Source: Candidatus Babeliales bacterium (lineage in GTDB: Bacteria > Babelota > Babeliae > Babelales > JANWKD01). From it: 64,000 nt of DNA. The first letter of the stretch is position 1. Each line of letters begins with the position of its first letter. The stretch lies in NCBI GenBank assembly GCA_963722075.1, contig CAVRJM010000001.1, positions 1,088,001-1,152,000 on the forward strand, read 5' to 3'. Below are positions 44,271-62,455 of this stretch, one piece after another. Both the position numbers and the translations under genes were made by a program. The notes beneath the pieces were generated by a model. That model saw only the letters and a list, made by a program, of their open reading frames with translations. It was not told where the DNA came from and ran no database searches.

Positions 44271-45233
44271 TTAATCTTTTTTCTCATATTGCTTTGTTCT
44301 TGATTCGGCTGCACGGCAAAATGGACATACTACTGTTGCTCGAGCTGATCCTGCTTTTAAGCTTTCCCAACAGGTTTTACAAATACATTTTTTACAACCA
44401 GTAGTAATAAATTGCTCGCCTTTTTCTATTTCTTCAAAGCAAATAGGGCATTCTAATTCTTCAGTTTCTTCCTCTTCTCCTTCAGTTTTCTGTTGGGGCT
44501 GCTGCGGTAACTGCTGAGGCTGCACTTGTGGTTGTGGGTACGGAATTTGTCGGGGTGGCACTTGTTGGTGTCGATGCTTAGCTTCTATATCAATCAACTG
44601 TTGTATTAAATCATAAATTTCTTCCATTCGATGCTCATAATATCTTATTTGAGCGTTGTTATCCCATTCATAGTGAATCGGAGTTAAATAAGTTACCATT
44701 TCATCTTCAGGAAGAGGCTCTCGCGCATCTATTTTGAATAAAAGTACTACTTTATCACGATTCAATTTATTAATAATATTTTTAATTCGAGGATCAAAGT
44801 CAATTGGAAAATGCCCATTCCTCTCTAATTGATCAACTAATTTATAAATCTCCTTTATCTCAGTAGGTAAGTTAATTTTTGCTTGTGATGCGGGAGACAA
44901 ATTAAATAAACCTTCTATGTCTCTTAAGGCATACTTAACATCCCAGGACTCCATTTCAATATTATGTTGCAAATAGGATCTTAATATATCCTTAACATTT
45001 TTTAACAAGGTGATTGCTTGTTGCTCAACCTGAGTCAGTTTTACAGGAATTTGTGGTGGCATATATGATAATGTGGGTGGCCCTAAAGGTGATACCGGTG
45101 GCTTGCCCGATAGTGCATCTTCCAGCTCAGTAAGCCGATTTTTTAAATCATTAAGATCATTTACTAACTGAGCGTTACTATTTAACATCATAACTAAAAA
45201 AAATAATATTACAGAAAAATGGCCTTTTTTCAT
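44271..45233 (-). CDS. Secreted RING-finger protein (putative E3 ligase effector)
   Basis: Signal peptide, PQ-rich linker and C-terminal CPIC...CKKCICKTC...CPFCR. Confidence 0.8.
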   Translation of the reverse strand: MKKGHFSVILFFLVMMLNSNAQLVNDLNDLKNRLTELEDALSGKPPVSPLGPPTLSYMPPQIPVKLTQVEQQAITLLKNVKDILRSYLQHNIEMESWDVKYALRDIEGLFNLSPASQAKINLPTEIKEIYKLVDQLERNGHFPIDFDPRIKNIINKLNRDKVVLLFKIDAREPLPEDEMVTYLTPIHYEWDNNAQIRYYEHRMEEIYDLIQQLIDIEAKHRHQQVPPRQIPYPQPQVQPQQLPQQPQQKTEGEEEETEELECPICFEEIEKGEQFITTGCKKCICKTCWESLKAGSARATVVCPFCRAAESRTKQYEKKD

Positions 45234-45249
45234 TTTTATCCTTTATTTT

Positions 45250-46396
45250 CAGGACTTACGCATTGGTCGAAAGTTCTGATTGGGACTTGAAATAAATAAA
45301 AAAGGGTGCTTCAATTTTGTGAATTAAACAACAAAAGCAAAAAAGAAGGACACCCGAAATGAGAATAACAAATACAAATGAAGAATCAAGCACACCAAAA
45401 TATGTAATGGGTTTATTAAAAACAACGGCACGAAAAGTTTGCACAAATATTTCTGAAACACTGGGAATAATGCATGATGTGCTCAATAGGGAAGTTGAAA
45501 AAGCAGCCCAGAATGCAGCAGAAATAACAAGCTCATTACAAAATGTTGCTCTAGAAAGTCTTAGCAATTGCGAAAGATATTTGATAATCGATGATACTCC
45601 CGTAAATAAGCAATATGCTAACGATATTGAAGGATTAGAAATTGTTTATGATAGTAGTGAGAAAAGATCAGCTTTGGGATTACGGTCTGTAATTGGCATG
45701 ATCACTGATACCAGAGTAAGAATACCGATTGATGCGGAGATTATGATAAGCAAAGTATTTGGAGAAACCAATTACAAGACAAAAAGTGAAATTGCTTACA
45801 TTATTATAGAGCGTGTTCTAGGATCAATTCGGTTTAATTGGTTAATTGCAGATGCCCATTATGCGACTGAATACCTTCTGCCAAAGCTTTTTAACAGGTC
45901 AATAAAATTTCTGATGAAAATTCCCAGAAATCGCGTTGTTACTATTAACAATAAAACAGGACAATTGCAAAAAATTTTACGTTTGAAAAAAAATAACAGA
46001 TTTGCTTGTGGATACGGCACTATTTTTGGTCTTTCCTGTTATTTCTATGTGTTAAAAATTGATAAGGAAAAAATTATGTATCTTATCAGTAGCCATCAGC
46101 TCGGCAAAGAGAAGCTAATTTCTACATATAAGATTCGTTGGCAAATTGAATGCTTCAATAGAACTGCCAAACAACTTCTTGGATTCAGCGAATGCCAAAT
46201 GCGTTCTTTTAACATGCAGCGTGCGCATTTACTTTTCGTGTTATGGGCTTATGCTTTAGCCGACATAAGGCGGGTAAAAGATAATTTCGACAATACTGAA
46301 CAAGCTGTCAGATCCTTTCGGGTCGCAAAACCCCCTACACCATCTAGTTTATTTTATGCTTTTGAAGAGAACTCTTATGCTCTTGCGTAAGTCCTG
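45250..46396 (+). mobile_element. IS701/IS4-superfamily insertion sequence
   Basis: Perfect 13-bp TIR CAGGACTTACGCA / TGCGTAAGTCCTG and a 7-bp direct repeat TTATTTT on both sides. Confidence 0.9.
45359..46390 (+). CDS. DDE transposase (IS701-like)
   Basis: LIIDDT, IADAHY and YKIRWQIECFNRTAKQLLG motifs. Confidence 0.88.
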   Translation: MRITNTNEESSTPKYVMGLLKTTARKVCTNISETLGIMHDVLNREVEKAAQNAAEITSSLQNVALESLSNCERYLIIDDTPVNKQYANDIEGLEIVYDSSEKRSALGLRSVIGMITDTRVRIPIDAEIMISKVFGETNYKTKSEIAYIIIERVLGSIRFNWLIADAHYATEYLLPKLFNRSIKFLMKIPRNRVVTINNKTGQLQKILRLKKNNRFACGYGTIFGLSCYFYVLKIDKEKIMYLISSHQLGKEKLISTYKIRWQIECFNRTAKQLLGFSECQMRSFNMQRAHLLFVLWAYALADIRRVKDNFDNTEQAVRSFRVAKPPTPSSLFYAFEENSYALA

Positions 46397-46490
46397 TTAT
46401 TTTTTATATTTCTTTTTTTGATAATGAAAAAAAATATTGATACATTGCAACTATTTTTTTAATACTAATAAAAATCTATAAGGATAAATT

Positions 46491-47516
46491 ATGGTATTTC
46501 ATATTATATATTGTTGTTTTTTTGCTTTTCTTCCCCTTCTATGCCAACCGCCCAAACTTCTCAATTGTGGTGCCACCTGTTATTTAAATGCAGCCACTCA
46601 AGCACTCTTGGCTATTAATCCGCTTAAAAATTTTTTACAATTAAATCCAAATGTTTATGCCCGAGGGTCGTTTGAAAATTCATTTCAACAATTAATAACT
46701 GCTGCGCCGCCGCTTGGCTTACCAAATCGTCAATTAATGAATACCTATGCAAAACAAGGCGCGAATATTATTGCCGGGTTATCACAAGGCAATCCCCTTG
46801 GTCAACAAGATGCATCGGAATTTTTAGGAGAGGTACTTGACCGGTTACGTACCAAGGGAAGAGAAGATAAAGAAAAAACGATTCGTCAATTTCTGAGTAA
46901 CATAATGGGTATACTTATTTATTCACAAATTGAATGCCCTCTTTCAGAATCACAATCTTATATTGCATCAAAACATACTAGCACTACGTATTATCTTTCA
47001 TTGCCAGTAAAAACAGCTTATGAGTTGCGTTCACTTGAAGAATGTTTATATGAATACTTCCAACCAGAACAGATTGAATTTAATGACCAAGAATGCAGGA
47101 AAACCAGCCAATTAGAGCACATTTCTTCTATTTTTATGGTGAGCTTAAGTAGGTATATTTTTGACATTGAAACACTAGAGGCTAAAAAATTAAGTCATTC
47201 TATACACGTTCCACTTACTTTCGATGTGCAACCATATTTAATACAAAAGCAAAATCATAATTTATATAAACTCATCGCATGCGTTGTGCATCATGGAACA
47301 GCAGCAGGAGGTCATTATGTTGCCTGTGTAAAATATGATAACCAGTGGTATCTTTGCGATGATACAACCATAACTAAGATCACTAAAAAAAAAGTAAAAC
47401 AATATGCCTCAATGGGATATATTTATATTTATGAACAAGAATCGTATACTACTATTAAAAAACAACTTGCTCATTTGAAACGAAGATTGAAAAGATTGTT
47501 AAGTCAGCTTCGCTGA
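46491..47516 (+). CDS. Secreted ubiquitin-specific protease (peptidase C19/USP)
   Basis: Cys box LLNCGATCYLNA, QQDASEFL, His box HHGTAAGGHYVA and WYLCDD. Confidence 0.9.
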   Translation: MVFHIIYCCFFAFLPLLCQPPKLLNCGATCYLNAATQALLAINPLKNFLQLNPNVYARGSFENSFQQLITAAPPLGLPNRQLMNTYAKQGANIIAGLSQGNPLGQQDASEFLGEVLDRLRTKGREDKEKTIRQFLSNIMGILIYSQIECPLSESQSYIASKHTSTTYYLSLPVKTAYELRSLEECLYEYFQPEQIEFNDQECRKTSQLEHISSIFMVSLSRYIFDIETLEAKKLSHSIHVPLTFDVQPYLIQKQNHNLYKLIACVVHHGTAAGGHYVACVKYDNQWYLCDDTTITKITKKKVKQYASMGYIYIYEQESYTTIKKQLAHLKRRLKRLLSQLR

Positions 47517-47550
47517 GCTTTTGAATGTAAAAATGAAATAATTTATTTGC

Positions 47551-47759
47551 TGGATCCTCACGGTGCTACGCACCTCAGGATGACATTCGTTAACCTGTCA
47601 CTCTGAGGCCGTTATACCGTAGGAATCCAATTATAGAATTAATTCATTATTGTCATCACGAGCTTGCGTGGTGATCCATTAATAAAATTCATTACCTCTA
47701 TTTGTAGCCTGGATTGCTTCGTAAGCCATGTCCGCCGAAGCCCCTGGATCGCAACGACA
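47551..47759. repeat. Cluster of four palindromic repeat units
   Basis: TGGATCCTCACG..CTCAGGATGACA; TGTCACTCTGAG..GGAATCCA; TGTCATCACGAG..GTGATCCA; CTGGATTGCTTCG..CGCAACGACA. Confidence 0.85.
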
Positions 47760-47853
47760 AACAATTGTAAATTTAATTTCTTTAAACACAGTATTTCTTG
47801 TATAGAGAACAAAGATTTAAAATTAAATAAAGATATAAACAAAGTGACTTCTT

Positions 47854-50421
47854 ATGAATATTGAACAATTTACCACCTCAAGCCAAGAGCTCATTAATAA
47901 AGCAGCATTTATCGTAAAGCAGTATAATAATCCGGCATTAACGCCGCTTCATTTATTAGCTGCAGCGCTCGAATCTGAATTTTGTCGCTCTTTTTTTGAA
48001 GTATTACATGTTTCATTAACAACACTTACTTCATTAGTACAAACTGAACTTAACAAATTACCCCAAGTACAAGGTGCGCAATTAGCAATTGATTATACCA
48101 CCGAACGTTTTTTAGATGAGGTACAAAAAGAAGCAACTAAATTGGGCGATTCCTACATAAGCTTGGAACACTTTTTGCTGGTATGGGCTACCACTACATA
48201 CCTTCCTCAATCAATTCGAGATTTTTTTAAGCAGTCCCATTTCACCTATACAGCGATCATGAATCATATGAAAACAATGCGCAAGGGAAAAAACGTGAAA
48301 GAAAAAAACGCTGAAAAACAATATCAAATTTTAGAAAAATATTGCCAAAATGTTACCGATCAAGCGCGCCAAGGAGTACTTGATCCGGTTATTGGACGGC
48401 ATGAAGAAATACGCCGTGTTATACAAATTCTTTCACGCCGCACCAAAAATAATCCGGTTTTAGTAGGAGAGCCGGGCGTTGGTAAAACCGCAATCGTAGA
48501 AGGAATTGCACAACGTATTATTAATAACGATGTTCCTGAAAGTTTGCGTAACAAACAAATATTTTCTTTAGATTTAGGATTACTAATCGCTGGCACTAAA
48601 TATCAAGGGGAATTTGAAGAGCGCATTAAAGGAATTTTAAAAGAAATTGAAGAGCGTCCTGATGATGTTATTTTGTTTATTGATGAATTGCATATGATTA
48701 TCGGCGCGGGCGCTTCTGGTGGTGGCGGCATGGATGCTTCTAATTTAATGAAACCAGCACTTGCACGCGGACAACTTCATTGCATTGGGGCAACTACGCT
48801 CAAAGAATATAAAAAATATATAGAAAAAGATGCGGCATTAGAGCGGCGTTTTCAAAAAGTACTCGTAGAAGAACCAACGGTAGAAGATGCCATTTCAATT
48901 CTGCGTGGTCTTAAAGAACGGTATGAATTGCATCACGGTATTCGCATTAAAGATCAAGCGTTGGTTGACGCTGTTTTATTGGCTGATAAAAATATTGCTG
49001 ACCGTTTTTTGCCCGATAAAGCAATTGATTTAGTTGATGAAGCCGCAGCAATGGTAAAAATGTCAATTGATTCGCAACCATTTGAAATTGATCAATTAGA
49101 GCGCAAAATCAGACAATTAGAAATTGAAAAAGTAGCATTACAAAAAGAAAAAGAAGACAGCGCTGCACAAGAGCGACTTAAGCAATTAGATCACGAATTA
49201 CAAGAATTAAAAGAAAAAAATAAAACGTTACTCAATCAATGGAAAGCAGAAAAAGAGCCGCTTGAAAAAATTAATAAAATAAAAGAAAAAATAGAACTTG
49301 CCAATGTTGAATTTCAGCAAGCAGAGCGTGATGGTAACTATGCACGTGCTTCAGAAATAAAATATGGCACCTTAGTAAAATTGGAGCATGAACTTGCTCA
49401 ATTACAAGAAAAATTAAAATCACTTTCTACGCACATGATTAAACAACAAGTTGATGAACATGATATTGCCAAAGTAATATCTCGTTGGACCGGGATCCCG
49501 GCAGAAAAATTACAAACTAATGAAGCACATAAAATTTTAACCATGGCTGATATTCTTAAAAAACGAGTAATTGGGCAAGATGAAGCGATTGAAAAAATTA
49601 CGCATGCAATTCAATTGCATCGCACCGGTTTAGTTGATCCTAATAAACCAATTGGCTCGTTTCTTTTCTTAGGACCTACGGGTGTAGGTAAAACAGAAGT
49701 TGCTAAAACGCTCGCTGATTTTCTTTTTAATGATCCTAAACGCATTATCCGTATTGATATGTCAGAATACATGGAAAAACATGCCGTAGCACGCCTTATT
49801 GGTGCACCACCGGGTTATGTTGGTTATGAAGAAGGCGGCCAACTAACTGAGCAAGTACGCCAACATCCATATAGCGTGGTGTTATTTGATGAAATAGAAA
49901 AAGCGCATCCAGATGTTTTTAATATTTTTTTACAAATTCTTGATGAAGGCCATTTAACTGATAGCCAAGGGCGTACCGTTTCATTTAAAAATTGTATCAT
50001 TATTATGACTTCTAATATCGGCTCTGATATTATTTTACAAGCGGAATCCATTACTGAAAAAGTTAAACAACAAGTTGAGCAACTCTTGCATCAACGTTTT
50101 AAACCGGAATTTTTAAACCGAATTGATGCACTAGTATTTTTCCATCAACTTACGCCGGAAGATGTACAACATATTGCTCAATTACAAATTCATGAATTAA
50201 AAGAACGCCTTACCGAACGTCATATCAATGCAACCATTGATGAAGCGGTGATTAAAAAAGTAGCACAAGAAGGTTATGTAAAAGAATTTGGTGCCCGCCC
50301 GCTCAAAAGAACCATTCAGCGGCTTATTACCGTGCCAATTTCACAATACTTACTGAAACATCCTGATACAAAAACAATACGTGTAGCACTTGAAAAAGAT
50401 GAAATTGTTATTAAAGGATAA
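47854..50421 (+). CDS. clpB: Chaperone ClpB
   Basis: Two AAA+ modules ([16 protein letters not shown]), a long M-domain coiled coil and GARPLKR. Confidence 0.96.
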
Positions 50422-50465
50422 GAAAATACGTTACACCGCTTTTCGTGATGACGAAATCAGAAAAC

Positions 50466-50495
50466 TGTCGTTGCGAGTTTACGAAGCAATCCAGG
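50466..50495. repeat. Palindromic repeat unit
   Basis: TGTCGTTGCGAGTTTACGAAGCAATCCAGG, an inverted near-copy of 56863..56892. Confidence 0.85.
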
Positions 50496-50594
50496 TTAAA
50501 AATGCAAATGTCGATTTCTACTAGACAAAATACTTAAGCATACGTTATTATTGGGCACAAGAATATTAACACACAAATAGTTGAAGGAAATAAC

Positions 50595-51530
50595 ATGACA
50601 ATATTCAAAAAAAATATTTTTTTTACCTTAACATTATCTCTGTTAGCTCAATCATGTATTGAAGCAAAATATTGGAATTGGGATCAAGATCCTGCTGATC
50701 CAGAAGCAGTAAAGCGTATATTTGAACAAACTATGGAGAGCGAATTACAACCACATAGTCAATCTGAAAAAGTGAAAAACACCATTCAAAACGCTAAATC
50801 AAATAAAGCAAACAATTTTAAGCAACTCGTTGCATGGAAATATTTATCAAAATATGAAGCAAAATCTGAAGCAGAGCAAGGTGGTCGCGACGAATCTATT
50901 AATTTAGCATTAAACATTATGTATGCTGAAATCGGAGATCAGTTAGATAATGCTATCAAAAAGCAAGACAAAGCTGCAACTGATGAAGATCTAAAGAGAA
51001 TTTATCATAAAATAAAAGATGTTATTAAACAAAAAATGCGCTCTGCTTACCGTCCTGCAACGGTGTTACAAGATTTCACTAAACCAGATTCTTACAATAC
51101 TACCAAAATAGAACAGTTGGTTAATCAAGAAGTTGCTAAACTCCCTAGTAATTTTAAAGAAAAACATTTTAGTGAAAATGATATCGTAGAGGTTTATCCA
51201 CAAAATAAAGTTGATCAAATGCGTTTACGCGTTCAACAAGGTAAAGTATGGCGAGAAGATGATTGTGCTGTTTGTGGCGAAGAATTTAGTACGCTTGGCA
51301 AACGAGTAAATTTAGAATGTGGGCACGCAATAATGTGCATGAAATGCGCTGTTGCCTCCATGCATATCTATAAAAAATATAACTGTCCAGTTTGCAGAGC
51401 CGCTATTGATCCAAATGATTTCTCACTCCGTTATCTCAAAAGTAATATGAAAGAATATGATTACAAAATATTTGAAAAGCTAGATCAGAATACCATGAAA
51501 CAAATCATGGATCTTTTTAAACGCGTTTAA
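50595..51530 (+). CDS. Secreted RING-HC (C3HC4) protein, putative E3 ligase effector
   Basis: Signal peptide; CAVC...CGHAIMCMKC...CPVCR. Confidence 0.85.
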   Translation: MTIFKKNIFFTLTLSLLAQSCIEAKYWNWDQDPADPEAVKRIFEQTMESELQPHSQSEKVKNTIQNAKSNKANNFKQLVAWKYLSKYEAKSEAEQGGRDESINLALNIMYAEIGDQLDNAIKKQDKAATDEDLKRIYHKIKDVIKQKMRSAYRPATVLQDFTKPDSYNTTKIEQLVNQEVAKLPSNFKEKHFSENDIVEVYPQNKVDQMRLRVQQGKVWREDDCAVCGEEFSTLGKRVNLECGHAIMCMKCAVASMHIYKKYNCPVCRAAIDPNDFSLRYLKSNMKEYDYKIFEKLDQNTMKQIMDLFKRV

Positions 51531-51534
51531 TTAT

Positions 51535-51605: not shown

Positions 51606-53327
51606 ATGCATCTTTATTTAATTATTTTTTTAGCACTTTCTTTTTCAACTATTTCTCTGCCCATGGAGCATGATTCTGATGTTCTCATGCAGGATAAATT
51701 GCCACCACCTAACGCGAAATCCTGTGTGCAAGATTTAGACATCTTATATACAAAAAATAGTTCAGTAGCATGGAAAGGGTTATGGATTCTTAATAATCTT
51801 CTTAAGAAAAAATCATCGAATGATCTATTAACTTATTATAGAGATATGCTCAGAGCCACCCTAGGTGCAACAAATAAACCCTTATTCATTGATTATTTTA
51901 TCCCTCGTTTAAACGACCTCATTAGAACAGCTCCCCTATTATCCGATGAATCAGCACTCATGGATTCATTAGAAAGTATTATTTCATTACTCAATGAACA
52001 ATATCCAACTGAGGCATTAAAACATACCGCTCGATTAATAAAAAAACGAAAACTAAATGATCGCAAAGGAAAGCAACGAATCAGATATGATGCGCCCGAA
52101 CAATCACATTCTAATGGCACTGAAAAAAATACCATCGATATCGATGCTTTAGAAAAATCGCATAATGGATCAGTGCTCAATTTTACTAAAAAATTTGAAG
52201 ATTTTATTACATCAAAAATGGGAAATTCTCGTGACCAGCTTATTGGCAATTTAGCCGATTTTATTGGTACCCATTACCAATCGCACCCCTGGGTTTCTGC
52301 TTATTGCTATTTAAAAATGCATCTGACACCTTCCAACAGTCAAGATACACTTTTCTTTGCGCTCATGGAAAGCATTAATAGTACGTGTCTACCGCATTTA
52401 TGCCAAAATAAACAAATACAAGAATTTATTGATTCTTTCACCCAAGATGCACAACCATTAGAAATTGAAGAAGCAACACCTGCTTATTTATATGATCCAC
52501 TTAGCATTACAACGGATCTCGGGGATCAACCATGCTTATGTATTGCCCAAAAAAATCTACTAATTATCGCAGATAAGGATTTAACTATCTATGATGTTGC
52601 AAAAAAAGCGTCGGTTGCTGCTCATCCCCTGACTACTGGTATTATTGCTCTTTGTCATACGCCGGTTACTGCATATCTTCCACCAACGATCATGACTGAC
52701 TTATTACCGTATGGTGATAAACTATATCTATTATCATCAAATAATAACACTATTAAATCAGCTTTACTTTCTCCCGGTCATGATTATTTGCTTACTCTCG
52801 ATTCAGACAATACTCTTTACGCTCTTAATATTGAAGAAGAATATAATCGTAGACAATCCAATGCTAAAGAAGAAGGGCATCAGCGGATTGCAACCCAGAG
52901 TTCTTTAGATTCTGTATTATTTTTAAATAATCACAAATGTTTAGTGGGCAATTACCCTATGGCCTTGATTTGTAATTTAAAAAAAAGAAAAACTAAATCA
53001 ACAAATTATACTAATTTAAGTTATGCTACCTTATTAAATAAAATGCTCCTTACGGTGCAAGATCATACCACCCTGCATCTTTGGGACCGCAGCCAACAAA
53101 AGCGAATGATACTGGCTGATGAAAGAAAAATAAGAGGGTTAGTAAGTTTTTCGGATTTTGCAGTAGTTGCCGGTCTTGAAAATATGCTCATTTATCATAA
53201 GGATCACGGACTTATTGAAAATATAGCAGTTAAGGAATCCATTACCGCGCTGCAAAAAACCGAAAACAAATTATTTGTACATTGTTCCGATAATAAATTA
53301 TTAGTATATTCAGCACGAGAAAATTAA
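51606..53327 (+). CDS. Secreted protein with C-terminal WD40-like beta-propeller
   Basis: Signal peptide followed by MEH; LTIYD, LHLWD and ITAL repeats. Confidence 0.6.
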   Translation: MHLYLIIFLALSFSTISLPMEHDSDVLMQDKLPPPNAKSCVQDLDILYTKNSSVAWKGLWILNNLLKKKSSNDLLTYYRDMLRATLGATNKPLFIDYFIPRLNDLIRTAPLLSDESALMDSLESIISLLNEQYPTEALKHTARLIKKRKLNDRKGKQRIRYDAPEQSHSNGTEKNTIDIDALEKSHNGSVLNFTKKFEDFITSKMGNSRDQLIGNLADFIGTHYQSHPWVSAYCYLKMHLTPSNSQDTLFFALMESINSTCLPHLCQNKQIQEFIDSFTQDAQPLEIEEATPAYLYDPLSITTDLGDQPCLCIAQKNLLIIADKDLTIYDVAKKASVAAHPLTTGIIALCHTPVTAYLPPTIMTDLLPYGDKLYLLSSNNNTIKSALLSPGHDYLLTLDSDNTLYALNIEEEYNRRQSNAKEEGHQRIATQSSLDSVLFLNNHKCLVGNYPMALICNLKKRKTKSTNYTNLSYATLLNKMLLTVQDHTTLHLWDRSQQKRMILADERKIRGLVSFSDFAVVAGLENMLIYHKDHGLIENIAVKESITALQKTENKLFVHCSDNKLLVYSAREN

Positions 53328-53330
53328 TTT

Positions 53331-54563
53331 ATGGTTTTTATATTTTTATTATTTTATTTATTATCTCTTACTCCACTGCAATCCATGGAGGCACCCGAAG
53401 ATGATTCCGTTACTTGTTTAATAGGCATATACAACTTCCACAAAGAGGCAGACATCGAAGCAGAAGGGATCGCTCTTGTAGAAAGCGCACTACAAGAATG
53501 GCTCATTACAAATCAGCCGGCAAAACGAGATTCCATTATTGATAATTTTATAAAATTATTAGAAGGGGCTTGCAAGTACAAAATACCTCCTTTAATAACT
53601 CTTACCTGCGTATATCTTACTAAATATTATAAAAACAATTTTGATACACCTGAAACTGCACCAGAAAAAACTGCAACACAAATACAAGAAACTGCACTGC
53701 GTTTATATAATGAATTGCTCAAACTAAATCCACAAGCAAAACACACAGAATTATTTAAATTGACGCAAATTAAGTCGAGTAATCAGAGTAATATTGTTAC
53801 ACAAGCTTTTATAGCAGAAGCTACTGCCACTCAACCTTATCTGCCACCACGAACTTCGCAACCAACTATAACAACCAAGCCTAAACCCGTTTTTAAAGAC
53901 GATAAACAGAATAGCATTGAACTACGCAGCAGTAATGAAACAACCTTTTACGCAATAGTAGATAAATCACCGATACCCCGTACTGATAACCCTACTAACT
54001 CTTTTATTGCTTCCGATCATTATCTTGTTACTTGCAATAAAAACGATATAAAAGTAGATAATCAAGCGCAAGGGCGTCGTTTTACTCTCCAAGGCCATAC
54101 AGCTCCAATTTTATCAGTACATTTTATTACCACCCATAAATTAATAAGCCGCTCACGCGATGGTTGTATCTTTTTGTGGAATTTAAATAAACAAACTTAC
54201 AAAGTATTATCAAATAATAAAGATGACAAACTACGAGCGCTTGCAATTGCGCAAGGTACTATGTTTAGTCTTCACGATAACCGTATAATCAAATTTTGGG
54301 ATAGAAGTAAAAAAAGCGCATTGCCAGTACATTCCGAGGTGTTGCCAATTATTTCGGATATTGCTCTTTTTAAAAATTGTTTAGTAGCTGCAGTAGCAAC
54401 CTATTTAAAAATATGGCCTAAACATGATAGTTTTTATGAAACTCGCGATATAAACTTAAAGAATTCTTGCCCAATTACTAAATTGAGCGCTTCTGATAAC
54501 CTTTTGATGGCTTTCAATGAACAGGGTAAAGTGCATATTGTAAGTGCCGTAAAAAAAGAGTAA
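53331..54563 (+). CDS. Secreted WD40-repeat protein
   Basis: Signal peptide followed by MEA; LQGHTAPILSV...SRSRDGCIFLWN and IIKFWD. Confidence 0.75.
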   Translation: MVFIFLLFYLLSLTPLQSMEAPEDDSVTCLIGIYNFHKEADIEAEGIALVESALQEWLITNQPAKRDSIIDNFIKLLEGACKYKIPPLITLTCVYLTKYYKNNFDTPETAPEKTATQIQETALRLYNELLKLNPQAKHTELFKLTQIKSSNQSNIVTQAFIAEATATQPYLPPRTSQPTITTKPKPVFKDDKQNSIELRSSNETTFYAIVDKSPIPRTDNPTNSFIASDHYLVTCNKNDIKVDNQAQGRRFTLQGHTAPILSVHFITTHKLISRSRDGCIFLWNLNKQTYKVLSNNKDDKLRALAIAQGTMFSLHDNRIIKFWDRSKKSALPVHSEVLPIISDIALFKNCLVAAVATYLKIWPKHDSFYETRDINLKNSCPITKLSASDNLLMAFNEQGKVHIVSAVKKE

Positions 54564-54569
54564 TAACTA

Positions 54570-55307
54570 ATGAGCCATTACACATTTGTTTTAAATTGGA
54601 AAATGTATTTTTCTTTCGATCAGGCAAAGCAATGGCTTGAAGATAATAAAAACGCGCTCGAAGAATTGGCGCATGATCAATCTTTCATTTTGTGCCCTTC
54701 GCATGAATCATTATGGCTTACCACTGCAGCGCTAGAAGGTGCGGCCATAGAAATAGGAGCACAACAGTGCTCGGCGCATGAACTCGGTGCTTATACAGGT
54801 CAAGTATCAGCTGCTTCATTGCATGATATGGCAATTAACTATTGCCTTGTTGGCCATAGCGAAGCGCGCATGGCATTTCATGAAACTAATGAGCAGTTGT
54901 ATAAAAAACTAGAATTGCTTACCAAGTTTGGAATAATTCCCATTTTTTGTATCGGAGAAACGCTTAAGGAGCATGAACAAAAAAAAACGTACGAGGTGCT
55001 CCATCAACAAGTAGAACCATTACTACGAGCTACTTCATTACATAACACTCCTTATTTTATTGCCTATGAACCTGTTTGGGCTATCGGTACTGGCAATGTT
55101 GCTTCTGCTTATTATATTCAGGAAGTATTAGCCTGGATAAAGGATATATTCACAAATGCTACCGCACCAATCACGCTATTTTATGGGGGTACCGTTAATG
55201 CTGACACGATTGAATCTTTAAAAGCAATTCCACTTATTGATGGCTTTTTAATTGGAAAAGCAAGTACAAATTTTCAAGAATTAAAAAAAATTGTATCATT
55301 GATGTAA
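54570..55307 (+). CDS. tpiA: Triosephosphate isomerase
   Basis: NWKM, GAYTG, GHSE, AYEPVWAIGTG and YGG motifs. Confidence 0.95.
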   Translation: MSHYTFVLNWKMYFSFDQAKQWLEDNKNALEELAHDQSFILCPSHESLWLTTAALEGAAIEIGAQQCSAHELGAYTGQVSAASLHDMAINYCLVGHSEARMAFHETNEQLYKKLELLTKFGIIPIFCIGETLKEHEQKKTYEVLHQQVEPLLRATSLHNTPYFIAYEPVWAIGTGNVASAYYIQEVLAWIKDIFTNATAPITLFYGGTVNADTIESLKAIPLIDGFLIGKASTNFQELKKIVSLM

Positions 55308-55334
55308 ATAGGAATTTGATATTCTGAAATTTGA

Positions 55335-55417
55335 TGGATCCTCACGTCGCTTACGCTCCTCAGGATGACGGGCAGCATTTATGTCATTCTGAGGCCTTTA
55401 GACCGTAAGAATCCAGG
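55335..55417. repeat. Tail-to-tail palindromic repeat pair
   Basis: TGGATCCTCACGTCGCTTACGCTCCTCAGGATGACG...TGTCATTCTGAGGCCTTTAGACCGTAAGAATCCAGG. Confidence 0.85.
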
Positions 55418-55453
55418 TATACATATAAATAATCTTAATTATTGGAGAAAAAT

Positions 55454-55780
55454 ATGATCTATGGCTTATTATTAACACTCTATTTGATAGTATGCTTATT
55501 CCTTATCCTATTGGTTCTGATTCAAAAGGGTAAAAGCTCTATGGGAATTGGTAACTTAGGTGGTGGCGTTCAAATGCTTTTTGGCGGGTCAGGTGGCCAA
55601 GATTTATTCCAAAAAACCACGTGGGCATTAGGAGCTATCTTTATGGCTGGTTCATTATTTTTATCTATTCTTAAAACACATCAATATAATCAATCACGCT
55701 ATATTACAGAACGCCCAGCCATCACCATGCCTAAAGAAGCTCCGGTAAAACCTGAAGCTCCTGCACCAACGCCACAATAA
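55454..55780 (+). CDS. secG: Preprotein translocase subunit SecG
   Basis: LVLIQKGK..G..GG...LFG..G...K.T pattern; tpiA-secG synteny. Confidence 0.92.
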   Translation: MIYGLLLTLYLIVCLFLILLVLIQKGKSSMGIGNLGGGVQMLFGGSGGQDLFQKTTWALGAIFMAGSLFLSILKTHQYNQSRYITERPAITMPKEAPVKPEAPAPTPQ

Positions 55781-55784
55781 AACT

Positions 55785-56558
55785 ATGGTTATATCTCTGA
55801 TCAATTCTATTGGTAGTTATGTTATATCAATGTGTAATATGATGGGGCTATTTGCACTTTTTTTATTGAACGTCATAAAGACCGCATTCACTACTAAACT
55901 TAAAATGAAAAAGGTGCTAGCGCAACTTGATGAAATTGGCTTTAACTCGCTGGTGATCGTTGTTTTAACGGGCACCTTCACCGGTGCGGTATTAGCATTG
56001 CAAACGTATATCGGGGTGCGCCGGTATGGTGGTGAAGAATTTATCGGGCCCATTGTTGCACTAAGTATGGCACGAGAATTGGGGCCGGTGATTACCGGCT
56101 TAATGGTAACGGGCCGCTCGGGATCTGCAATTGCAGCAGAAATAGGAACCATGCGCATCACTGAACAAATTGATGCGTTACAAACCTTACGCATTAATCC
56201 TTTACAATATTTAGTAGTGCCACGCCTTTTGGCAGGCGCTTTTATTTTACCGTTTCTTACGATGTTTTCGGTAATTTGCGGCATTATCGGCGGCTATTTT
56301 ATTGCTACCAGCGTTTTGGGCCTTAATGGAAACCAATATATTAACGGCATCAAGAAGTATTTAGAATATTCTGATGTTACCAATGGTCTTATTAAATCAA
56401 GTGTTTTTGGATTTATTTTAACCTGGGTAGGCGCCTTTAAAGGGTACCTTGCTGATGGTGGTGCGCGCGGTGTTGGTTTGGCTACCACGCAAAGTGTGGT
56501 CATGGGATCTATATTGCTACTGCTCGCTAATTATTTCTTAACCTCAGCACTGTTTTAA
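55785..56558 (+). CDS. mlaE: MlaE family ABC permease
   Basis: RELGPV, GRSGSAIAAEIGTMRITEQIDAL and GGARGVG motifs. Confidence 0.92.
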   Translation: MVISLINSIGSYVISMCNMMGLFALFLLNVIKTAFTTKLKMKKVLAQLDEIGFNSLVIVVLTGTFTGAVLALQTYIGVRRYGGEEFIGPIVALSMARELGPVITGLMVTGRSGSAIAAEIGTMRITEQIDALQTLRINPLQYLVVPRLLAGAFILPFLTMFSVICGIIGGYFIATSVLGLNGNQYINGIKKYLEYSDVTNGLIKSSVFGFILTWVGAFKGYLADGGARGVGLATTQSVVMGSILLLLANYFLTSALF

Positions 56559-56656
56559 AAGTACAGAGTAGGAATTTTTCATGACCTAATACGCTGTATA
56601 CATGGCCACGAATTATACATTTTATATTCAAAGCCTAAAAAAGATGTATTAAAAGT

Positions 56657-56892
56657 CGTCGTTGCGAGCTTGCGAAGCAATCCAGGCTAAAAACGAGCCG
56701 GTATATAGCAGCAAAAAGTAATATTATAACATTATGATTTTTTACTATTCCAGAAAACAAATAAAAGAGAAAATAATATAATTATTCATCAAATTAATAA
56801 ATTAATACTAAGATAATTGTAAGTAACAAACATAACAAAACATAAAGAAATTTATAACTGAACCTGGATTGCTTCGTAAACTCGCAACGACG
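56657..56892. repeat. REPIN/MITE-like element: 30-bp inverted units around an AT-rich core
   Basis: CGTCGTTGCGAGCTTGCGAAGCAATCCAGG ... CCTGGATTGCTTCGTAAACTCGCAACGACG. Confidence 0.85.
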
Positions 56893-56958
56893 TATTGCAG
56901 ATTCAAGGCAATTGGTCAGGAGTAAGATCTTCTTGCATGCAAAAGCAAAGATGTAGAA

Positions 56959-57714
56959 ATGATTAAAATTATTAATTTACGTAAAAAATTTGATCATCGC
57001 TGGATTACCGATGGGGTCGATTTAGAAATTCCTGAAGGTAAGATGACGGTTGTTATCGGAAGGTCTGGTGAAGGTAAATCGGTATTACTCAAACAAATTA
57101 TTGGCCTTATTACTCCCACTTCAGGTGAAATTATTGTTGATGGCATAGATATTGTACCAATTGCGCAAAAAAACCCTGATGAAATTTTTAAACAATTTGG
57201 TTATGTATTTCAATTTGCAGCACTACTTGATTCTTTAAATGTGTTTGAAAATGTTGGTATCAGCTTACTAGAACAAGGAATGCCGCCGCAACAAGTGTTA
57301 CCAATCGTTAAAGAACGCTTAAAAATGGTTAATTTAAAAGAAGAGATTCTCAATCGAATGCCATCAGAAATATCAGGTGGTATGAGAAAGCGGGTAGGGC
57401 TTGCGCGCACGCTTATTAGTAAGCCAAAAATTATTCTCTATGATGAACCAACCACCGGTCTGGATCCAATTACCTCACGCGTTATTCATGAACTTATGTT
57501 TGATATGCAAAAGCAGCTTAATATCACGTCTATTGTTATTTCGCATGACGTTGAAATTTTTAAATACGCCGATTATGTTGCCTTATTGCATGAAGGCAAG
57601 ATTCGCTTTCATGGGGACGCCAAAACCATTTGGGAATCAGATAACCCCTATATTTATCAATTCATTCGCGGCCTCACTGAAGGGCCTATTCAAACAGAAG
57701 CTAAACAGGCATAA
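56959..57714 (+). CDS. mlaF: MlaF family ABC ATP-binding protein
   Basis: GRSGEGKS, ISGGMRKRV, LYDEPTTGLDP and SHD motifs. Confidence 0.9.
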   Translation: MIKIINLRKKFDHRWITDGVDLEIPEGKMTVVIGRSGEGKSVLLKQIIGLITPTSGEIIVDGIDIVPIAQKNPDEIFKQFGYVFQFAALLDSLNVFENVGISLLEQGMPPQQVLPIVKERLKMVNLKEEILNRMPSEISGGMRKRVGLARTLISKPKIILYDEPTTGLDPITSRVIHELMFDMQKQLNITSIVISHDVEIFKYADYVALLHEGKIRFHGDAKTIWESDNPYIYQFIRGLTEGPIQTEAKQA

Positions 57715-57722
57715 GCCAACCA

Positions 57723-57823
57723 TGTCATCCCGATCCGCCGCCGCGCAGCTTTGGAGATACAAGGCCTATCCCATCGAAGTTATTTATTCCGCTTTTGTCA
57801 TCCCGAGCTCGCGTGGGGATCCA
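57723..57823. repeat. Palindromic repeat units
   Basis: TGTCATCCCGA... and TGTCATCCCGAGCTCGCGTGGGGATCCA. Confidence 0.8.
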
Positions 57824-58030
57824 TTAATTAATCCCTAGCAATCCTCCCTTAATCATTGTTTCTATTTGAATTTTTTTATAGAAAAAAGCAACTTTAATAG
57901 TAAAAACAGCTTACGGCAAGCCTTTCTTATTGACACAAATCATATTATTGTTATAATTGTAATTTGAATGGATATTTTTAGATAAATAATTACAAACAAG
58001 TAATTTTCGCGGACAATTCAAGGGATTATA

Positions 58031-59026
58031 ATGGGGACTTTTGCTAAACCATCTTTATTGTTTATTTTACTCCTTTCTGCTGCATTACCAAGCTTTGGCA
58101 TGAATAAAACTAAATCTTTTTTTAAAAAAGGATTAGGAATAGCGGCAACAGTAGGAACAGGAGCATTAGTAGTCACCAATTATGGCCTTTCATTTGCACT
58201 TCCTGGCTCATTAGTTTACTCAAAGATCAAAGGTTCTATTAAGGAAAAGAAAGAATTACCCGAACCACCTGAATCAGTAAAACAATTTATTCAGGCAAAT
58301 TTAGCAATACAAGGAGTCCATAATAGTGATCAAATACAAATAAAACATGAACCAGTAGCAACACAAGCTAAAGCTGCATTGCATAGCCCATCGGTTTTTA
58401 ACAATACTGTTTTTGTTCCTTGTTATCCTAAATATTCACGATCTGAACAAAAAATACTACCACGCTCCATATTACAAGATACATTAGAAAAAAATGATGA
58501 GGATTATTATGAGCACGATAGAAAAATGCAACTAGCTGAACAATCTTTCATATATCGCCATGAAGCAAATCATATTAAATATCACGATACAAAAAAAATT
58601 TTAGGTGTATCTATATTTATTCCATGCGCTATCAAGGGAATATCATTTTTATTAAAAAAATCGTATAGACCAAAACAATTGCTTAAAAATCTCTTAGCAA
58701 TACCTGGCGGCATACTCACAACATATACTAATATTATTTTTTCCACCGCTTATAGAAGAATGACTGAACAACGAGCTGATGATGATATTGTTGCAGATGA
58801 TCCTAAAATACTTAAGGCTGGAATAAAATTCTTTAAACAAATGCAACGATATGAGCCCCATGAAAGAATCCCCGCTTCTTTTTCTGATCATTTATTGAAA
58901 ATAGCTACTAACATACGTACCCATCCTCGTCTTCAGCACCGCATTAATCGTTTAAAAGAGCGTAAGAAGGCACTTGAGGGATTAAAGCATAAAAAAATAA
59001 AAAAAACAAAATGGAATAATTATTAG
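58031..59026 (+). CDS. Secreted M48-like zinc metallopeptidase
   Basis: HEANH zinc motif, downstream EQRADD and THP; signal peptide followed by MNK. Confidence 0.7.
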   Translation: MGTFAKPSLLFILLLSAALPSFGMNKTKSFFKKGLGIAATVGTGALVVTNYGLSFALPGSLVYSKIKGSIKEKKELPEPPESVKQFIQANLAIQGVHNSDQIQIKHEPVATQAKAALHSPSVFNNTVFVPCYPKYSRSEQKILPRSILQDTLEKNDEDYYEHDRKMQLAEQSFIYRHEANHIKYHDTKKILGVSIFIPCAIKGISFLLKKSYRPKQLLKNLLAIPGGILTTYTNIIFSTAYRRMTEQRADDDIVADDPKILKAGIKFFKQMQRYEPHERIPASFSDHLLKIATNIRTHPRLQHRINRLKERKKALEGLKHKKIKKTKWNNY

Positions 59027-59048
59027 GAGCTTTTTAGAGGACAATCAT

Positions 59049-59291
59049 ATGTATAAATATTTATATCTCCTGCTTTTTCTATCGTTACCCTGCATCGCCA
59101 TGGATCGCAGCGTATCGCATAAACGGAATTCAAATGCTTCATTTTATTTAGGAAAAAATGTAACAACATTCTCTCTAGAACGACTTCAGCTCCAAAGAGA
59201 GATTGAAGATGCAAAACTAAAGCAAGAAGAAGTGCGCGAGCAAATGAAACAACCCGAAAGTTATTTTAGTAGGTTTTTTGGCAATAATTAA
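59049..59291 (+). CDS. Small secreted hypothetical protein
   Basis: GAGG RBS; signal peptide followed by MDR; coiled coil. Confidence 0.6.
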   Translation: MYKYLYLLLFLSLPCIAMDRSVSHKRNSNASFYLGKNVTTFSLERLQLQREIEDAKLKQEEVREQMKQPESYFSRFFGNN

Positions 59292-59713
59292 AATAGTTTA
59301 TTTTTTATACGCCTAAATAAGCCATGCACTTCATAATCATTAATGGCGGTATTAAAAAATGCTTTAGCTCCTAAAATATTGATTCCATATCCTAAACTTC
59401 CCAAACTTACCGCTCCCCAAAAAGCGCCAACAGCAAGAGTTAATTTATCTAACTTTTTTTCGTTAAAAATTGATAAAGCTCCTAACCCAGTGATTACCCC
59501 AAATCCCGTCATCAAATAGCCGGTTGGTCGCTGGCTAGCAATCTTGGTGCCTGCCAGATTTTTTCGCTGTTCCTGCCGCTGCTGTAAGTTTTTTTGTTTG
59601 GCTTTTACTATTTGTTGCTGCAAATGACGTATTTCTTCTTGTTTCTCTGCCTCCGTCTGCATAGAATGAGCAAAAGCCGGCATTAAGAGAAGTAAAAGAA
59701 TATAATGAATCAT
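59288..59713 (-). CDS. Secreted hypothetical protein with 2 TM helices
   Basis: AAGGA RBS; signal peptide followed by MQT; coiled coil and TM pair. Confidence 0.65.
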   Translation of the reverse strand: MIHYILLLLLMPAFAHSMQTEAEKQEEIRHLQQQIVKAKQKNLQQRQEQRKNLAGTKIASQRPTGYLMTGFGVITGLGALSIFNEKKLDKLTLAVGAFWGAVSLGSLGYGINILGAKAFFNTAINDYEVHGLFRRIKNKLF

Positions 59714-59924
59714 ATTATTTTTTCCTTTAATTTATATCCCTCATATATTTATAAACTACCATAAAATCGGTCTTTTGGGAAAAGCCATGATTTAATAGCA
59801 GAGCAGAATAATATTTCTAATATAAATTATTATTGTTTTAATAAATTCACCTGAGATCAATTTGACACTAATGCAAATTTTTGAAATAGTAAATATATAT
59901 AATTCAAAAAACAGATAGGGACCT

Positions 59925-60965
59925 ATGTTATTTCAATTAATCTATATACTACTTTTTACCATAACTATTTTTAAACCAATTTACACACAAGAACCATCAG
60001 CTGCTGCTGCTGCTGAAAAAAATAGCTATCCGGCTACATATTATAACTATGAATATAATGAAAAAAATTTAGAGGGAATGTTCAATATACCTGGATGCCA
60101 AGGCGGCCCAGATTGCCAATGCAGCAGCGCAGTACTTTATAAAAACTGCACCAATTCATTTATATGCGAGTCGGTAATTAATGAAAATGGTAACGGTATT
60201 GCCTGTTCAGTATCTGTATCTGAAGAAAACCCTTACTTTGAACAATTAATTTCAATTGCAGCCAATAACAGTAATAAATGCATAGAAAAATTTGAAGAAA
60301 CCATAAGGGAAGCGGAGCAAGCTTTACATGAACAACAGGATGGCCAAGACTCTCAAGAACTAAAAGAAGCATATACAATATTGAAAAATGCCACAAATGA
60401 ATATAGAAAATACAGCTCACCAGAACAAATTAAAGACAGCCTTTATCGACATACAGATGGGAAAAAGTATATTACTAATATATTTTTAAACCCACGCAGA
60501 CCACTTATTTTTTATTCAAAAGAATTTTTAGAAAAACGATTTAAAAATATTTCATCTGAATATTTAAAAAATTTTCTTGAAAATGAAGCAATGATTCCGA
60601 TGGGAATTTTAGTAACGCATTTGGCAAAGCAACAAACTGAACGCCTTTTAGCATTTGTTGTTCTTTGCAAGTTTGTAATACAACCAGATAAAGAACATCT
60701 CGTTGATTCAAGCTTTATTTATCATGACAAATTCGGCCCTTTTATGGTTGCCGCCCTTGCATTAGACGTAGATTGCCCTGATAGGTATATATTCAAAAAA
60801 ACTTCAGAGTCTGATGAATATCAATTTTTAGAACTACATGAATCAATAACGCCTCCACATTATATTGATGGCTTTACCATATCTAAAGGATATCAAAAAC
60901 TTAAAAAAGAGAAGCCTGATATTTTTGAAAAAGGTTTTATTACAATCTCAGAGTCATCAAATTAG
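59925..60965 (+). CDS. Secreted hypothetical protein, Cys-rich N-terminal half
   Basis: Signal peptide and a long ORF in AT-rich DNA. Confidence 0.65.
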   Translation: MLFQLIYILLFTITIFKPIYTQEPSAAAAAEKNSYPATYYNYEYNEKNLEGMFNIPGCQGGPDCQCSSAVLYKNCTNSFICESVINENGNGIACSVSVSEENPYFEQLISIAANNSNKCIEKFEETIREAEQALHEQQDGQDSQELKEAYTILKNATNEYRKYSSPEQIKDSLYRHTDGKKYITNIFLNPRRPLIFYSKEFLEKRFKNISSEYLKNFLENEAMIPMGILVTHLAKQQTERLLAFVVLCKFVIQPDKEHLVDSSFIYHDKFGPFMVAALALDVDCPDRYIFKKTSESDEYQFLELHESITPPHYIDGFTISKGYQKLKKEKPDIFEKGFITISESSN

Positions 60966-61060
60966 TTATTTATAGCATTTTTCTCAATTTCTTGATTTTT
61001 AGAAGATCTTTATCGGTAGACTACCAATAAAGATCTTTTTTACTTTAATGAAGAATCTCT

Positions 61061-62455
61061 ATGAAAAAAAACCTAATTATTTTATTAACTATTATTCCGT
61101 TATCACTATCTGCACAACCACCAGCTTTAAGAAATTTTGGCAATAGCTGCTATGTTAATGCCTTAATACAAGCCCTCTATGCTACTAAACCCCTCAACAA
61201 TCTCTTATTAAGCACAGAAGTACCGCTAGAATTTATTTCTATTCCTGCTCGCACTTATAAAGATTTAGTGATCAATTTTATTAACGGCAATCAATCAGCT
61301 ATCGATGCAGCTTTATTTGATTTTTATAACAGCATAAAAGGAGTTTATGCAACGGGAACTGGAGCTGGGCCTTCACAACCTCCGCCAGGTATCGTTATCC
61401 CAAAGCAGGAACAACCAGCAGGCAGACGGCAGCCAGTAGGCAGAGGTCGTCGTCCAACGCCTAAATCAGCGCTTGAAAAAGCAATTGAAGAAAGTAGAAA
61501 AGAAATGTTCGAGTTTACTAAGCAACATGCGCAATTAATTACTACCATTGCACGCGCAAAAAACCCTACTTTTGATAAGTTATCTGCCAAAGAAAAGCAA
61601 GATATCCAATATTCAATTAGCGACGTTTTGAATACCTTTAATCAAGAGCGACAGCAAGATGCACACGAATTTCTTATGTATATTTTAAAAGAGCTACAAA
61701 AAATTGCACCCACTCAAGCAGAAGAACTTTTTTTCTATTTGCTCTCTAATAATGAACAAGATGCTATTCTTAATATACCCACCTATACACCGGCAAAAGT
61801 TGTTATTGATTATGCAATGGTATCAGGGCAATACCAATTGTTAAGTGAAATCTCATACTTCGATTCACTTTATGAAGGGTTAAAGAAGGCATTACGAGGA
61901 TATAAAATAGCAATCACACCTTCAATTTTCATCTGTGCATTAAATAGAACCGTTTCAGGTCGTAATATTGATACAACAGCAATTAGTTCCTTAAAAATTA
62001 GACATCCGGTGAGAATTCCATTCATTTTAAATCTGAGTCCTTATACCACAGGTGATGAGCCAACAGCTTTTGATTTATATGCTATTGCTGTTCATCGAGG
62101 CCTATCAGCAAATGCTGGTCATTATGTCACCTATGTCAAGCACAACAATCAATGGTATTTATGCAATGACATGCAAATAAAACCAGTAACGGCTCAAGCA
62201 GTACGTAATGAAATAGAAACTGATGGCTACATTCTTTTTTACCAACGGATAGAGGAATATTTTGAAGAAGAAGAGCCTGTAATTATTGAAGAAGAGTTGC
62301 CCCTTGAAGAGCCTGAAGAAATTCTTATTGAAGAACCCGTGGAAGTTCCGCCTGCTCAAAAAGAGGAAGAAGTATCGTCATTAGAACAAGCGCTGCGTTG
62401 GCTACAAATTAAATTGCAAACATTGCTAAAGGCACTCACTCATTTGTCATCCTAA
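61061..62455 (+). CDS. Secreted ubiquitin-specific protease (peptidase C19/USP)
   Basis: LRNFGNSCYVNA, QQDAHEFL, HRG..NAGHYVTY and WYLCND motifs; acidic tail. Confidence 0.9.
   Translation: MKKNLIILLTIIPLSLSAQPPALRNFGNSCYVNALIQALYATKPLNNLLLSTEVPLEFISIPARTYKDLVINFINGNQSAIDAALFDFYNSIKGVYATGTGAGPSQPPPGIVIPKQEQPAGRRQPVGRGRRPTPKSALEKAIEESRKEMFEFTKQHAQLITTIARAKNPTFDKLSAKEKQDIQYSISDVLNTFNQERQQDAHEFLMYILKELQKIAPTQAEELFFYLLSNNEQDAILNIPTYTPAKVVIDYAMVSGQYQLLSEISYFDSLYEGLKKALRGYKIAITPSIFICALNRTVSGRNIDTTAISSLKIRHPVRIPFILNLSPYTTGDEPTAFDLYAIAVHRGLSANAGHYVTYVKHNNQWYLCNDMQIKPVTAQAVRNEIETDGYILFYQRIEEYFEEEEPVIIEEELPLEEPEEILIEEPVEVPPAQKEEEVSSLEQALRWLQIKLQTLLKALTHLSS

Follow-up and report, generated by a model that had tools for sequence, protein, structure and literature searches.

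Why would a small bacterial genome encode proteins built like the ubiquitin enzymes of eukaryotes, and where would such proteins act? The question is raised by a 64,000-nucleotide stretch of a Candidatus Babeliales genome (C1:1088001-1152000, on a contig of 1.42 Mb; hereafter the window); the genome comprises 1.47 Mb in four contigs, with a completeness of 99.2% and a contamination of 1.97%. An initial reading of this DNA (the original prediction) had placed six open reading frames (ORFs) between positions 44271 and 62455, all of which recur in the ORF listing: two ubiquitin-specific proteases (USP1 and USP2), two RING proteins (RING1 and RING2) and two WD40-like proteins (WD40a and WD40b). 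Babeliales, or Dependentiae, are protist parasites with small genomes (PMC4776705, PMC6561590; sources cited by PMC number stand for those portions of them that were available). The answer favoured here, with a probability of roughly 0.58, is that the USPs and RINGs are exported through the Sec pathway and a type II secretion system (T2SS) as effectors against the host, and that a 21-residue leucine-heptad tag found on three of the six proteins serves coiled-coil docking. The effector part is quite probable, while docking, as deduced from the sequence pattern of the tag, stands at about even odds.

The two USPs are the clearest members of the set. USP1 (46491..47516, + strand, 341 residues) consists of a compact, complete USP domain (Cys30, His275, Asp291) with Fingers present and a C-terminal tag, and USP2 (61061..62455, + strand, 464 residues) combines a USP domain (Cys30, His354, Asp370) with a large insertion, shortened Fingers, an acidic linker and a C-terminal tag. 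Searches with the Pfam UCH hidden Markov model (HMM) placed both far above the cut-off of 23.9 bits (USP1, 2e-37 and 129.5 bits; USP2, 2e-35 and 122.8 bits), and these are the only two UCH matches in the genome. By sequence and alignment, the catalytic residues are accompanied by N25 in both proteins, the Glu of the QQD-A-x-E box is E110 in USP1 and E203 in USP2, and an aromatic residue follows the catalytic His (Y276 and Y355). The conserved Glu and an aromatic gatekeeper are described as USP features (PMC10643670, PMC10719079), their positions here being mapped by our own alignment. Across 25 USPs of the phylum, catalytic and ubiquitin-tail-binding positions are almost invariant. The predicted USP1 model (pLDDT 89) matches USP-ubiquitin complexes in Foldseek with E ~1e-24 and TM ~0.7, and its Fingers are complete (strands 141-166 and 193-211). 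The USP2 model (pLDDT 77) reaches Z ~30 to USP14/USP46; its Fingers, with short strands at pLDDT ~70, carry two deletions common to the orthologue in relative G194, and both proteins retain the catalytic boxes despite the deletion. Catalytic residues, UCH matches and predicted folds together bear out the original prediction of two C19/USP-type proteins with intact Cys and His boxes.

Eukaryote-type domains in a bacterial assembly might reflect eukaryotic or viral contamination. This explanation has virtually no probability here and is refuted by synteny: the genes are intron-free, lie on the 1.42-Mb bacterial contig and are syntenic with uvrC, clpB, moxR and gspC in relatives, and USP1 groups with family orthologues at a support of 99/95. 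ClpB is 75-77% and uvrC 62-64% identical to loci L034 and L042 of Candidatus Babeliales bacterium, with the same gene order, and by such sequence comparison the genome is assigned to Babeliales. The taxonomic check of the contig proposed at the outset therefore returned Candidatus Babeliales, in agreement with the initial view that contamination was unlikely. The proposed phylogeny was informative in part. The first tree used 113 domains, after 17 redundant eukaryotic rows had been dropped, and a later one 44 of 130 domains. USP2 forms a clade separate from USP1, the two were never sisters under three tree methods, neither joined USP12/46, and chlamydial USPs grouped apart. No donor of the USPs is claimed, because the deep nodes remain open, the eukaryote sample is thin (mostly USP12/46) and no approximately unbiased (AU) test was made.

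Among the RING proteins, RING2 (50595..51530, + strand, 311 residues) has a signal-peptide-like start, no tag and a canonical C3HC4 RING at residues 224-267, with canonically spaced ligands (C224, C227, C242, H244, C248, C251, C264, C267) and Arg268 directly after the last Cys. All nine orthologous loci in which the pattern was found, our own included, keep the eight ligands, eight of them keep the Arg, and the orthologues follow clpB in four relatives. RING1 (44271..45233, - strand, 320 residues) is built from a signal-peptide-like start, an N-terminal tag, an orphan helical region and a C-terminal atypical RING of eight Cys (262, 265, 280, 283, 285, 288, 303, 306), followed by Arg307. Here, Lys282 occupies the expected His position and ligands 4 and 5 are one residue apart, which makes the spacing atypical. 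An Arg directly after the last RING Cys is the linchpin Arg, a feature of RING E3 ligases. The zinc-finger search, run with zf-RING_2, placed both proteins above the cut-off (RING1 with 29 bits against 27.3) and gave no other match in the genome. A homologue search with RING1 returned only RING1 itself, and its residues 1-255 gave no usable Atlas match. The claim of two RINGs with a linchpin Arg accordingly stands for the Arg in both proteins and for the canonical RING2, but RING1 lacks the His ligand.

How would these proteins leave the cell? All six pass a signal-peptide heuristic based on hydrophobicity (our own, not SignalP), and four of four cytoplasmic neighbours fail it. The same heuristic passes 557 of 1282 ORFs of at least 100 residues in the genome and 28 of 61 in the window, so that the Sec-type signal peptides claimed for all six are found as heuristic positives but are not distinctive; the genomic share matches the 44% of signal-peptide proteins reported for Chromulinavorax (PMC6561590). 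No basic residue precedes the hydrophobic stretch in USP1, WD40a and WD40b, and a lipobox pattern was found in none of the six. Among Babeliales USP sequences, 27 of 38 pass. The 5' end of gspC (63734..64000, + strand, Pfam T2SSC) starts 1.3 kb after USP2 and opens a T2SS locus that runs past the window, continuing with a secretin, a PilM/GspL-like gene, a GspM-like gene and a second secretin; gspE, gspF, gspG and pseudopilins (T2SSE, T2SSF, T2SSG) lie elsewhere in the genome, and some of these parts may serve a type IV pilus. The original prediction had left out both this locus adjoining USP2 and the shared terminal tag. T2SS genes with two gspD copies belong to the phylum core (PMC4776705), and the type III, IV and VI markers SctV/FlhA, VirB4 and VipB gave no match in any of the 21 genomes searched, and the controls were positive. 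Export of the USPs and RINGs by Sec and T2SS is what we infer from these genes and signal peptides. Between USP2 and gspC lies a gene for a MoxR AAA ATPase (window 62625-63608), with the same order in G194. GspC itself (L276:1734-2846) has a C-terminal helical extension after a probable PDZ region, conserved by eye in G194, and is a candidate partner of the tag.

The tag was first seen as a leucine helix at most C-termini in the USP alignment. In RING1 (45108..45170, - strand) it spans residues 22-42, directly after the predicted signal peptide; in USP1 (47451..47513, + strand) it forms the final residues, 321-341, with a predicted helix at 321-340; in USP2 (62378..62440, + strand) residues 440-460 lie inside a predicted helix (431-463, pLDDT ~90). 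The pattern has Leu at positions 2, 6, 9, 13, 16 and 20, Glu at 3 and 5, and Lys at 10 and 12. Leu fills the a/d heptad positions in 24-31 of 32 tags, Glu and Lys fill e/g, aromatic residues make up 2%, and the net charge is close to zero. A first matrix was derived from 13 USP C-termini, all from other genomes, with 12 of the 25 rows omitted (two from the window, two by hand and eight gapped). Among the 557 signal-peptide proteins, it matched 13 immediately downstream of the signal peptide and 8 at the C-terminus. The 670 other proteins gave no match at either position, 9 of 5060 internal blocks matched, and the shuffle means were 0.14 and 0.18 (Fisher P against non-secreted proteins, 3e-5 for the N-terminal and 2e-3 for the C-terminal position). 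A refined matrix, which is partly circular, gave 24 N-terminal, 10 C-terminal and 2 near-C-terminal tags, including those of RING1, USP1 and USP2, and one false match in ClpB. Thirty-four proteins of the genome, or ~6% of its ~560 signal-peptide proteins, carry the tag at the N- or C-terminus of the mature chain.

DNA identity between tags averages 45% and reaches at most 65%, with Leu codons close to genome usage, and close untagged paralogues of tagged proteins exist. Because of this low identity and these untagged paralogues, the tag is, as judged from the sequences, a selected, portable peptide that was not recently copied. Its spread as a recent DNA cassette was considered and is ruled out by the low DNA identity. 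Two arrays of tagged genes were seen in passing. One (G000 C1:1075639-1082832, L105) consists of tagged paralogues whose 5' ends are almost identical and whose 3' halves are shuffled, which suggests reassortment of the termini; the other (G041 L184:3982-13292) is a tandem array of five orphan proteins with internal tag copies.

The cargo of the tag is diverse. Six of 37 candidates have clear Pfam domains (NUDIX, NADAR, Macro, MavL-like, EEP and DnaJ), four have weak or generic matches and 27 have none. The scan of relatives covered 25 of 36 tagged ORFs, seven known USPs, one near-duplicate and three probable generic coils being set aside; six carry ankyrin repeats, one a leucine-rich repeat (LRR), one a MavL-like domain, one UCH and two generic domains, and 14 gave none. 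Tags occur in 200-400 kb samples of G176, G001, G041 and G137; at least three Babeliales families other than that of our genome have the tag. Two Bacteroidota controls had no tag on their signal-peptide proteins (32 and 22) and one match on another protein. Of the USP sequences, 12 of the 38 from Babeliales have the tag, as do none of the 44 from other bacteria and none of the 12 from viruses, a comparison that is partly circular. The phylum sample comprises 201 genomes including our own, and all 200 drawn belong to one order; counts over it include related, non-independent genomes. An insensitive 21-column tag HMM matched 32 of the 201 at E <=0.05, and 2 of 20 non-Babeliales controls with single weak matches; the 29 non-self loci checked held 13 signal-peptide proteins by the heuristic and at least four ClpB. 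Pfam searches with 32 tags, underpowered at 21 residues, gave no family matching more than one member (best E 0.04), and the best sequence matches in the PDB were designed all-leucine coiled coils and three-helix bundles, weak at E 0.006 and above.

What would the tag do? It is proposed that USP1, USP2, RING1 and RING2 would leave via Sec and the T2SS encoded next door and enter the protist host, where the USPs would clear ubiquitin from the surface of the bacterium or from its compartment, a role proposed for TssM, which is secreted by a T2SS, and the RINGs would bring charged host E2 (E2~Ub) to selected substrates. Through pairing with one another or with a helical scaffold, the tags would dock their carriers at a common site and so gather some of the effectors, ADP-ribose erasers among them, at the places where the host deposits its defence marks. 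A possible extension, put forward tentatively, is that the portable tag is a sorting code for Sec/T2SS effectors, either as a surface counter-defence layer or as a linear signal read by the T2SS; at either end of a protein it might gather ubiquitin writers and erasers, ADP-ribose erasers and chaperone modules at the surface. The tag could also serve as a handle, predicting ~30 further effectors per genome, mostly orphans.

If the tag were purely an export signal, recognised on one class of substrates by GspC, a secretin N-domain or the tip of the pseudopilus, its near-confinement to free ends of signal-peptide proteins, the T2SS locus adjoining USP2 here and in G194, the two secretins and the conserved helical extension of GspC would all fit. 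This is nevertheless unlikely, because most exported proteins are untagged (34 of ~560 carry the tag, RING2, the WD40 proteins and close paralogues do not) and the tag is tolerated at either end and even internally. In addition, the T2SS is core to the phylum (PMC4776705), yet the tag was not detected in several lineages. None of the T2SS proteins scored for the tag.

Alternatively, the tag might bind a protein or membrane inside the host, for instance as a membrane-binding amphipathic helix or a mimic of MIM1 for MIT domains, and the eukaryote-like cargoes would suit such a role. Position 12 is Lys or Arg in 22 of 32 tags, and the core of the tag, Leu-x2-Lys/Arg-Leu-x2-Leu, may resemble the ESCRT-III MIM1 motif. 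MIM1 is a helix that binds the MIT groove (PMC4475061). Host binding is improbable, however, given that no ESCRT-III chain appeared among 48 PDB matches (E up to 10), that two thirds of the tags are N-terminal, and that a narrow all-leucine face, 2% aromatic residues and a net charge of about zero are more in keeping with a coiled coil than with a membrane helix. A bacterial MIT-domain receptor for the tag was above the cut-off in none of the 201 genomes.

A further question is whether the six genes form a unit. The four USP and RING genes lie within 18.2 kb, for which the chance is ~8e-6 if they were placed independently, a post hoc figure. Directly after RING2 follow WD40a (51606..53327, + strand, 573 residues), with a probable C-terminal beta-propeller and no tag, and WD40b (53331..54563, + strand, 410 residues), with predicted WD40 repeats in its C-terminal half and no tag. 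The WD40 assignment predicted for both is supported for WD40b (WD40 at 2e-5, below the curated cut-off, WD40_WDHD1 at 2e-8, and many WD40-clan matches, all sub-cut-off) and weak for WD40a (best Pfam match 0.014, Atlas matches of 0.87-0.88 mostly to WD40 proteins, pairwise E 0.001 to WD40b). RING1 and USP1 had been described as a divergent pair. Their orientation is indeed opposite, but an insertion sequence (IS) of 1148 bp (45250..46397, + strand; DDE_Tnp_1 transposase at 45359-46390, inverted ends, flanking 7-bp direct repeats) splits them. The IS, with seven full near-identical copies in the genome, is a recent insertion 16 bp upstream of the RING1 start, and without it the two starts would be ~110 bp apart.

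In relatives, G176 and G198 keep uvrC-USP1-clpB-RING2 without WD40 genes beside RING2, G001 keeps uvrC-clpB-RING2, G002 clpB-RING2 and G194 USP2-moxR-gspC; the USP1 orthologue sits between uvrC and clpB in family relatives, and the synteny comparison found no relative with all six genes. Since relatives keep only pieces, RING1 has no homologue found and the USPs fall into separate clades, the cluster is, by these comparisons, an accretion of old single genes and not a conserved operon, and the six-gene unit originally proposed is not supported. It is very unlikely that the genes are a local toolkit of their own, with the WD40 proteins as substrate adaptors of RING2 or, in the manner of WDR48/WDR20 with USP12/46, as activators of the USPs. 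The appeal of this reading lies in the clustering of both USP and both RING genes of the genome within 18 kb, the close spacing of RING2-WD40a-WD40b-tpiA, and USP12/46 as best eukaryotic matches of the USP profile, which PDB lists show in WDR48/WDR20 complexes. Opposed to it are the lack of WD40 genes beside USP1 and RING2 in G176 and G198, trees that join neither USP to USP12/46, other WD40 genes elsewhere and housekeeping genes that interrupt the cluster.

Several neighbouring features were recorded besides. At G000 C1:973370-982700 (L301-L304), four tandem signal-peptide Skp1/POZ and WD40 proteins are probable cullin-ligase adaptors or Skp1 mimics. In the L111 region of G194, clpB is in four pieces, and the two signal-peptide ORFs that flank it are similar to the N-terminus of RING2 but have no RING. 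Within the window, positions 58031-59026 encode a signal-peptide M48-like peptidase with an HExxH motif (paralogue at C1:940036), 55785-57714 hold mlaE-like and mlaF-like genes (named by sequence inspection) after secG, in the same order in G194 and with no mlaD seen in the window, and 40265-42501 a minus-strand run of four small orphan signal-peptide genes, two of which share a similar HFGGY tail.

The substrate of these enzymes is likely the host ubiquitin system. A genome search gave no ubiquitin, E2, U-box, F-box-like or OTU match, which is weak evidence as the controls of these searches were also empty (E1 was not searched); the earlier observation that the window lacks ubiquitin and E2 is to that extent extended to the genome. 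It is quite unlikely that the proteins are anything other than delivered ubiquitin enzymes, whether through activity on a different modifier or an ester, through partial degeneration (RING1, USP2) or through a release into the host confined to vesicles or lysis. The ligand change and IS at RING1 and the Finger deletions of USP2 could be read in this way, outer-membrane vesicles were seen in Chromulinavorax (PMC6561590), and SnUSP2/3 react with ISG15 probes as well (PMC10643670); yet catalytic and ubiquitin-contact positions are conserved across families, and the Finger deletion is common to the G194 orthologue, in which the catalytic boxes are kept.

Several observations count against tagged, host-directed effectors as the full account. 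As 27 of 37 tagged proteins lack a Pfam match, 'erasers' fits only a minority of them. In 200-kb samples, G194, G079 and G005 gave no tag match, the G194 USP2 C-terminus being a diverged leucine helix; the tag is internal in five of seven cases in G041, missing from 26 of 38 Babeliales USP sequences and absent from RING2, WD40a, WD40b and all 25 other phylum RINGs sampled, and generic coiled coils such as the ClpB middle domain score as tag matches. RING1 has atypical ligands, no homologue found and an IS directly upstream, and the short Fingers may weaken ubiquitin binding by USP2. SnUSP3 is an intact bacterial USP and yet almost inactive on chains (PMC10643670). Finally, a T2SS crosses bacterial membranes only (PMC10719079), so a vacuole membrane would block access to the host. 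Enzyme activity and target of the USPs and RINGs are likewise what we infer from sequence. Overall, the observations of the original prediction were mostly, in places partly, confirmed, and its interpretation is partly supported.

How widespread are such enzymes? UCH was found in 63 and zf-RING_2 in 120 of the 201 genomes, and in 0 of 14 controls. The view that USPs and true RINGs are rare in bacteria is correct as regards characterised enzymes and does not apply to this phylum: in its available text, a review of 2026 (PMC13720258) gives TssM and SnUSP1-3 as the sole identified bacterial USPs and SneRING as the zinc-binding RING, with no mention of Dependentiae. Supplementary Table S5 of PMC4776705 lists 'Ubiquitin C-terminal hydrolase' in three rows for Babela massiliensis and four for UASB124, as well as 'Ring finger domain' genes, and the word 'ubiquitin' does not occur in the portion of its main text available. 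No paper on Dependentiae USPs, RINGs or the tag was found in a search that covered subscription journals thinly. Giant USP-domain ORFs were also seen, of 3751 residues in G039 C17 (L025, at least five USP domains) and 3283 residues in G088 C2. USPs occur in a third of the sampled genomes and RINGs in three fifths, which on the tentative sorting-code reading would make the phylum a rich and unexploited reservoir of both enzyme types in bacteria. Their phylum-wide presence, seemingly without type III, IV or VI systems, suggests ubiquitin-based defence in protists and points to a Sec/T2SS route for effectors. Export could be examined in Babela massiliensis, a species that grows in Acanthamoeba and for which three ubiquitin hydrolases are annotated.

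Among known systems, the closest likeness is to SnUSP1-3 (PMC10643670) and SneRING (PMC12591485) of Simkania negevensis, likewise an intracellular, amoeba-associated bacterium with several canonical USP domains and with RING proteins of atypical zinc ligands; the Simkania enzymes are active in vitro. Simkania, however, has T3SS/T4SS (type III and IV secretion systems) and large USPs with hydrophobic regions, whereas Sec-type starts, a T2SS, no type III, IV or VI marker and a terminal tag are found here; chlamydial USPs stand apart from Babeliales USPs in our trees, a comparison made with chlamydial sequences other than those of Simkania. Burkholderia TssM (PMC10719079) is a USP-fold effector, secreted by a type II system and proposed to clean the bacterial surface. 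It lacks the entire Fingers and has an Ig-like domain, with no tag described in the text available, whereas USP1 has full and USP2 shortened Fingers; TssM and CYLD were not among the best 50 fold matches listed for USP2, and the shortened Fingers of USP2 would be a second natural case of altered ubiquitin recognition. The predicted ubiquitin-specific proteases of Amoebophilus asiaticus and Cardinium (PMC8831229; L053, L062, L064, L065, L072) are also endosymbiont USPs, expressed early in infection, but form a separate branch, and none of the 44 non-Babeliales bacterial USP sequences bears the tag. The TM6 annotations (PMC4776705, Table S5) use the same domain labels, with no residues, distribution, export route or tag in the material available. 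Designed coiled coils and three-helix bundles (PDB 1g6u, 1cos and 7qdk) share with the tag Leu at a/d, Glu/Lys at e/g and a length of three heptads; these are weak pattern matches to synthetic peptides and not homology. The enzymes themselves belong to known kinds, represented by the Simkania USPs and RING, TssM and the predicted Amoebophilus proteases; new are their phylum-wide spread, the probable Sec/T2SS-only route and the tag.

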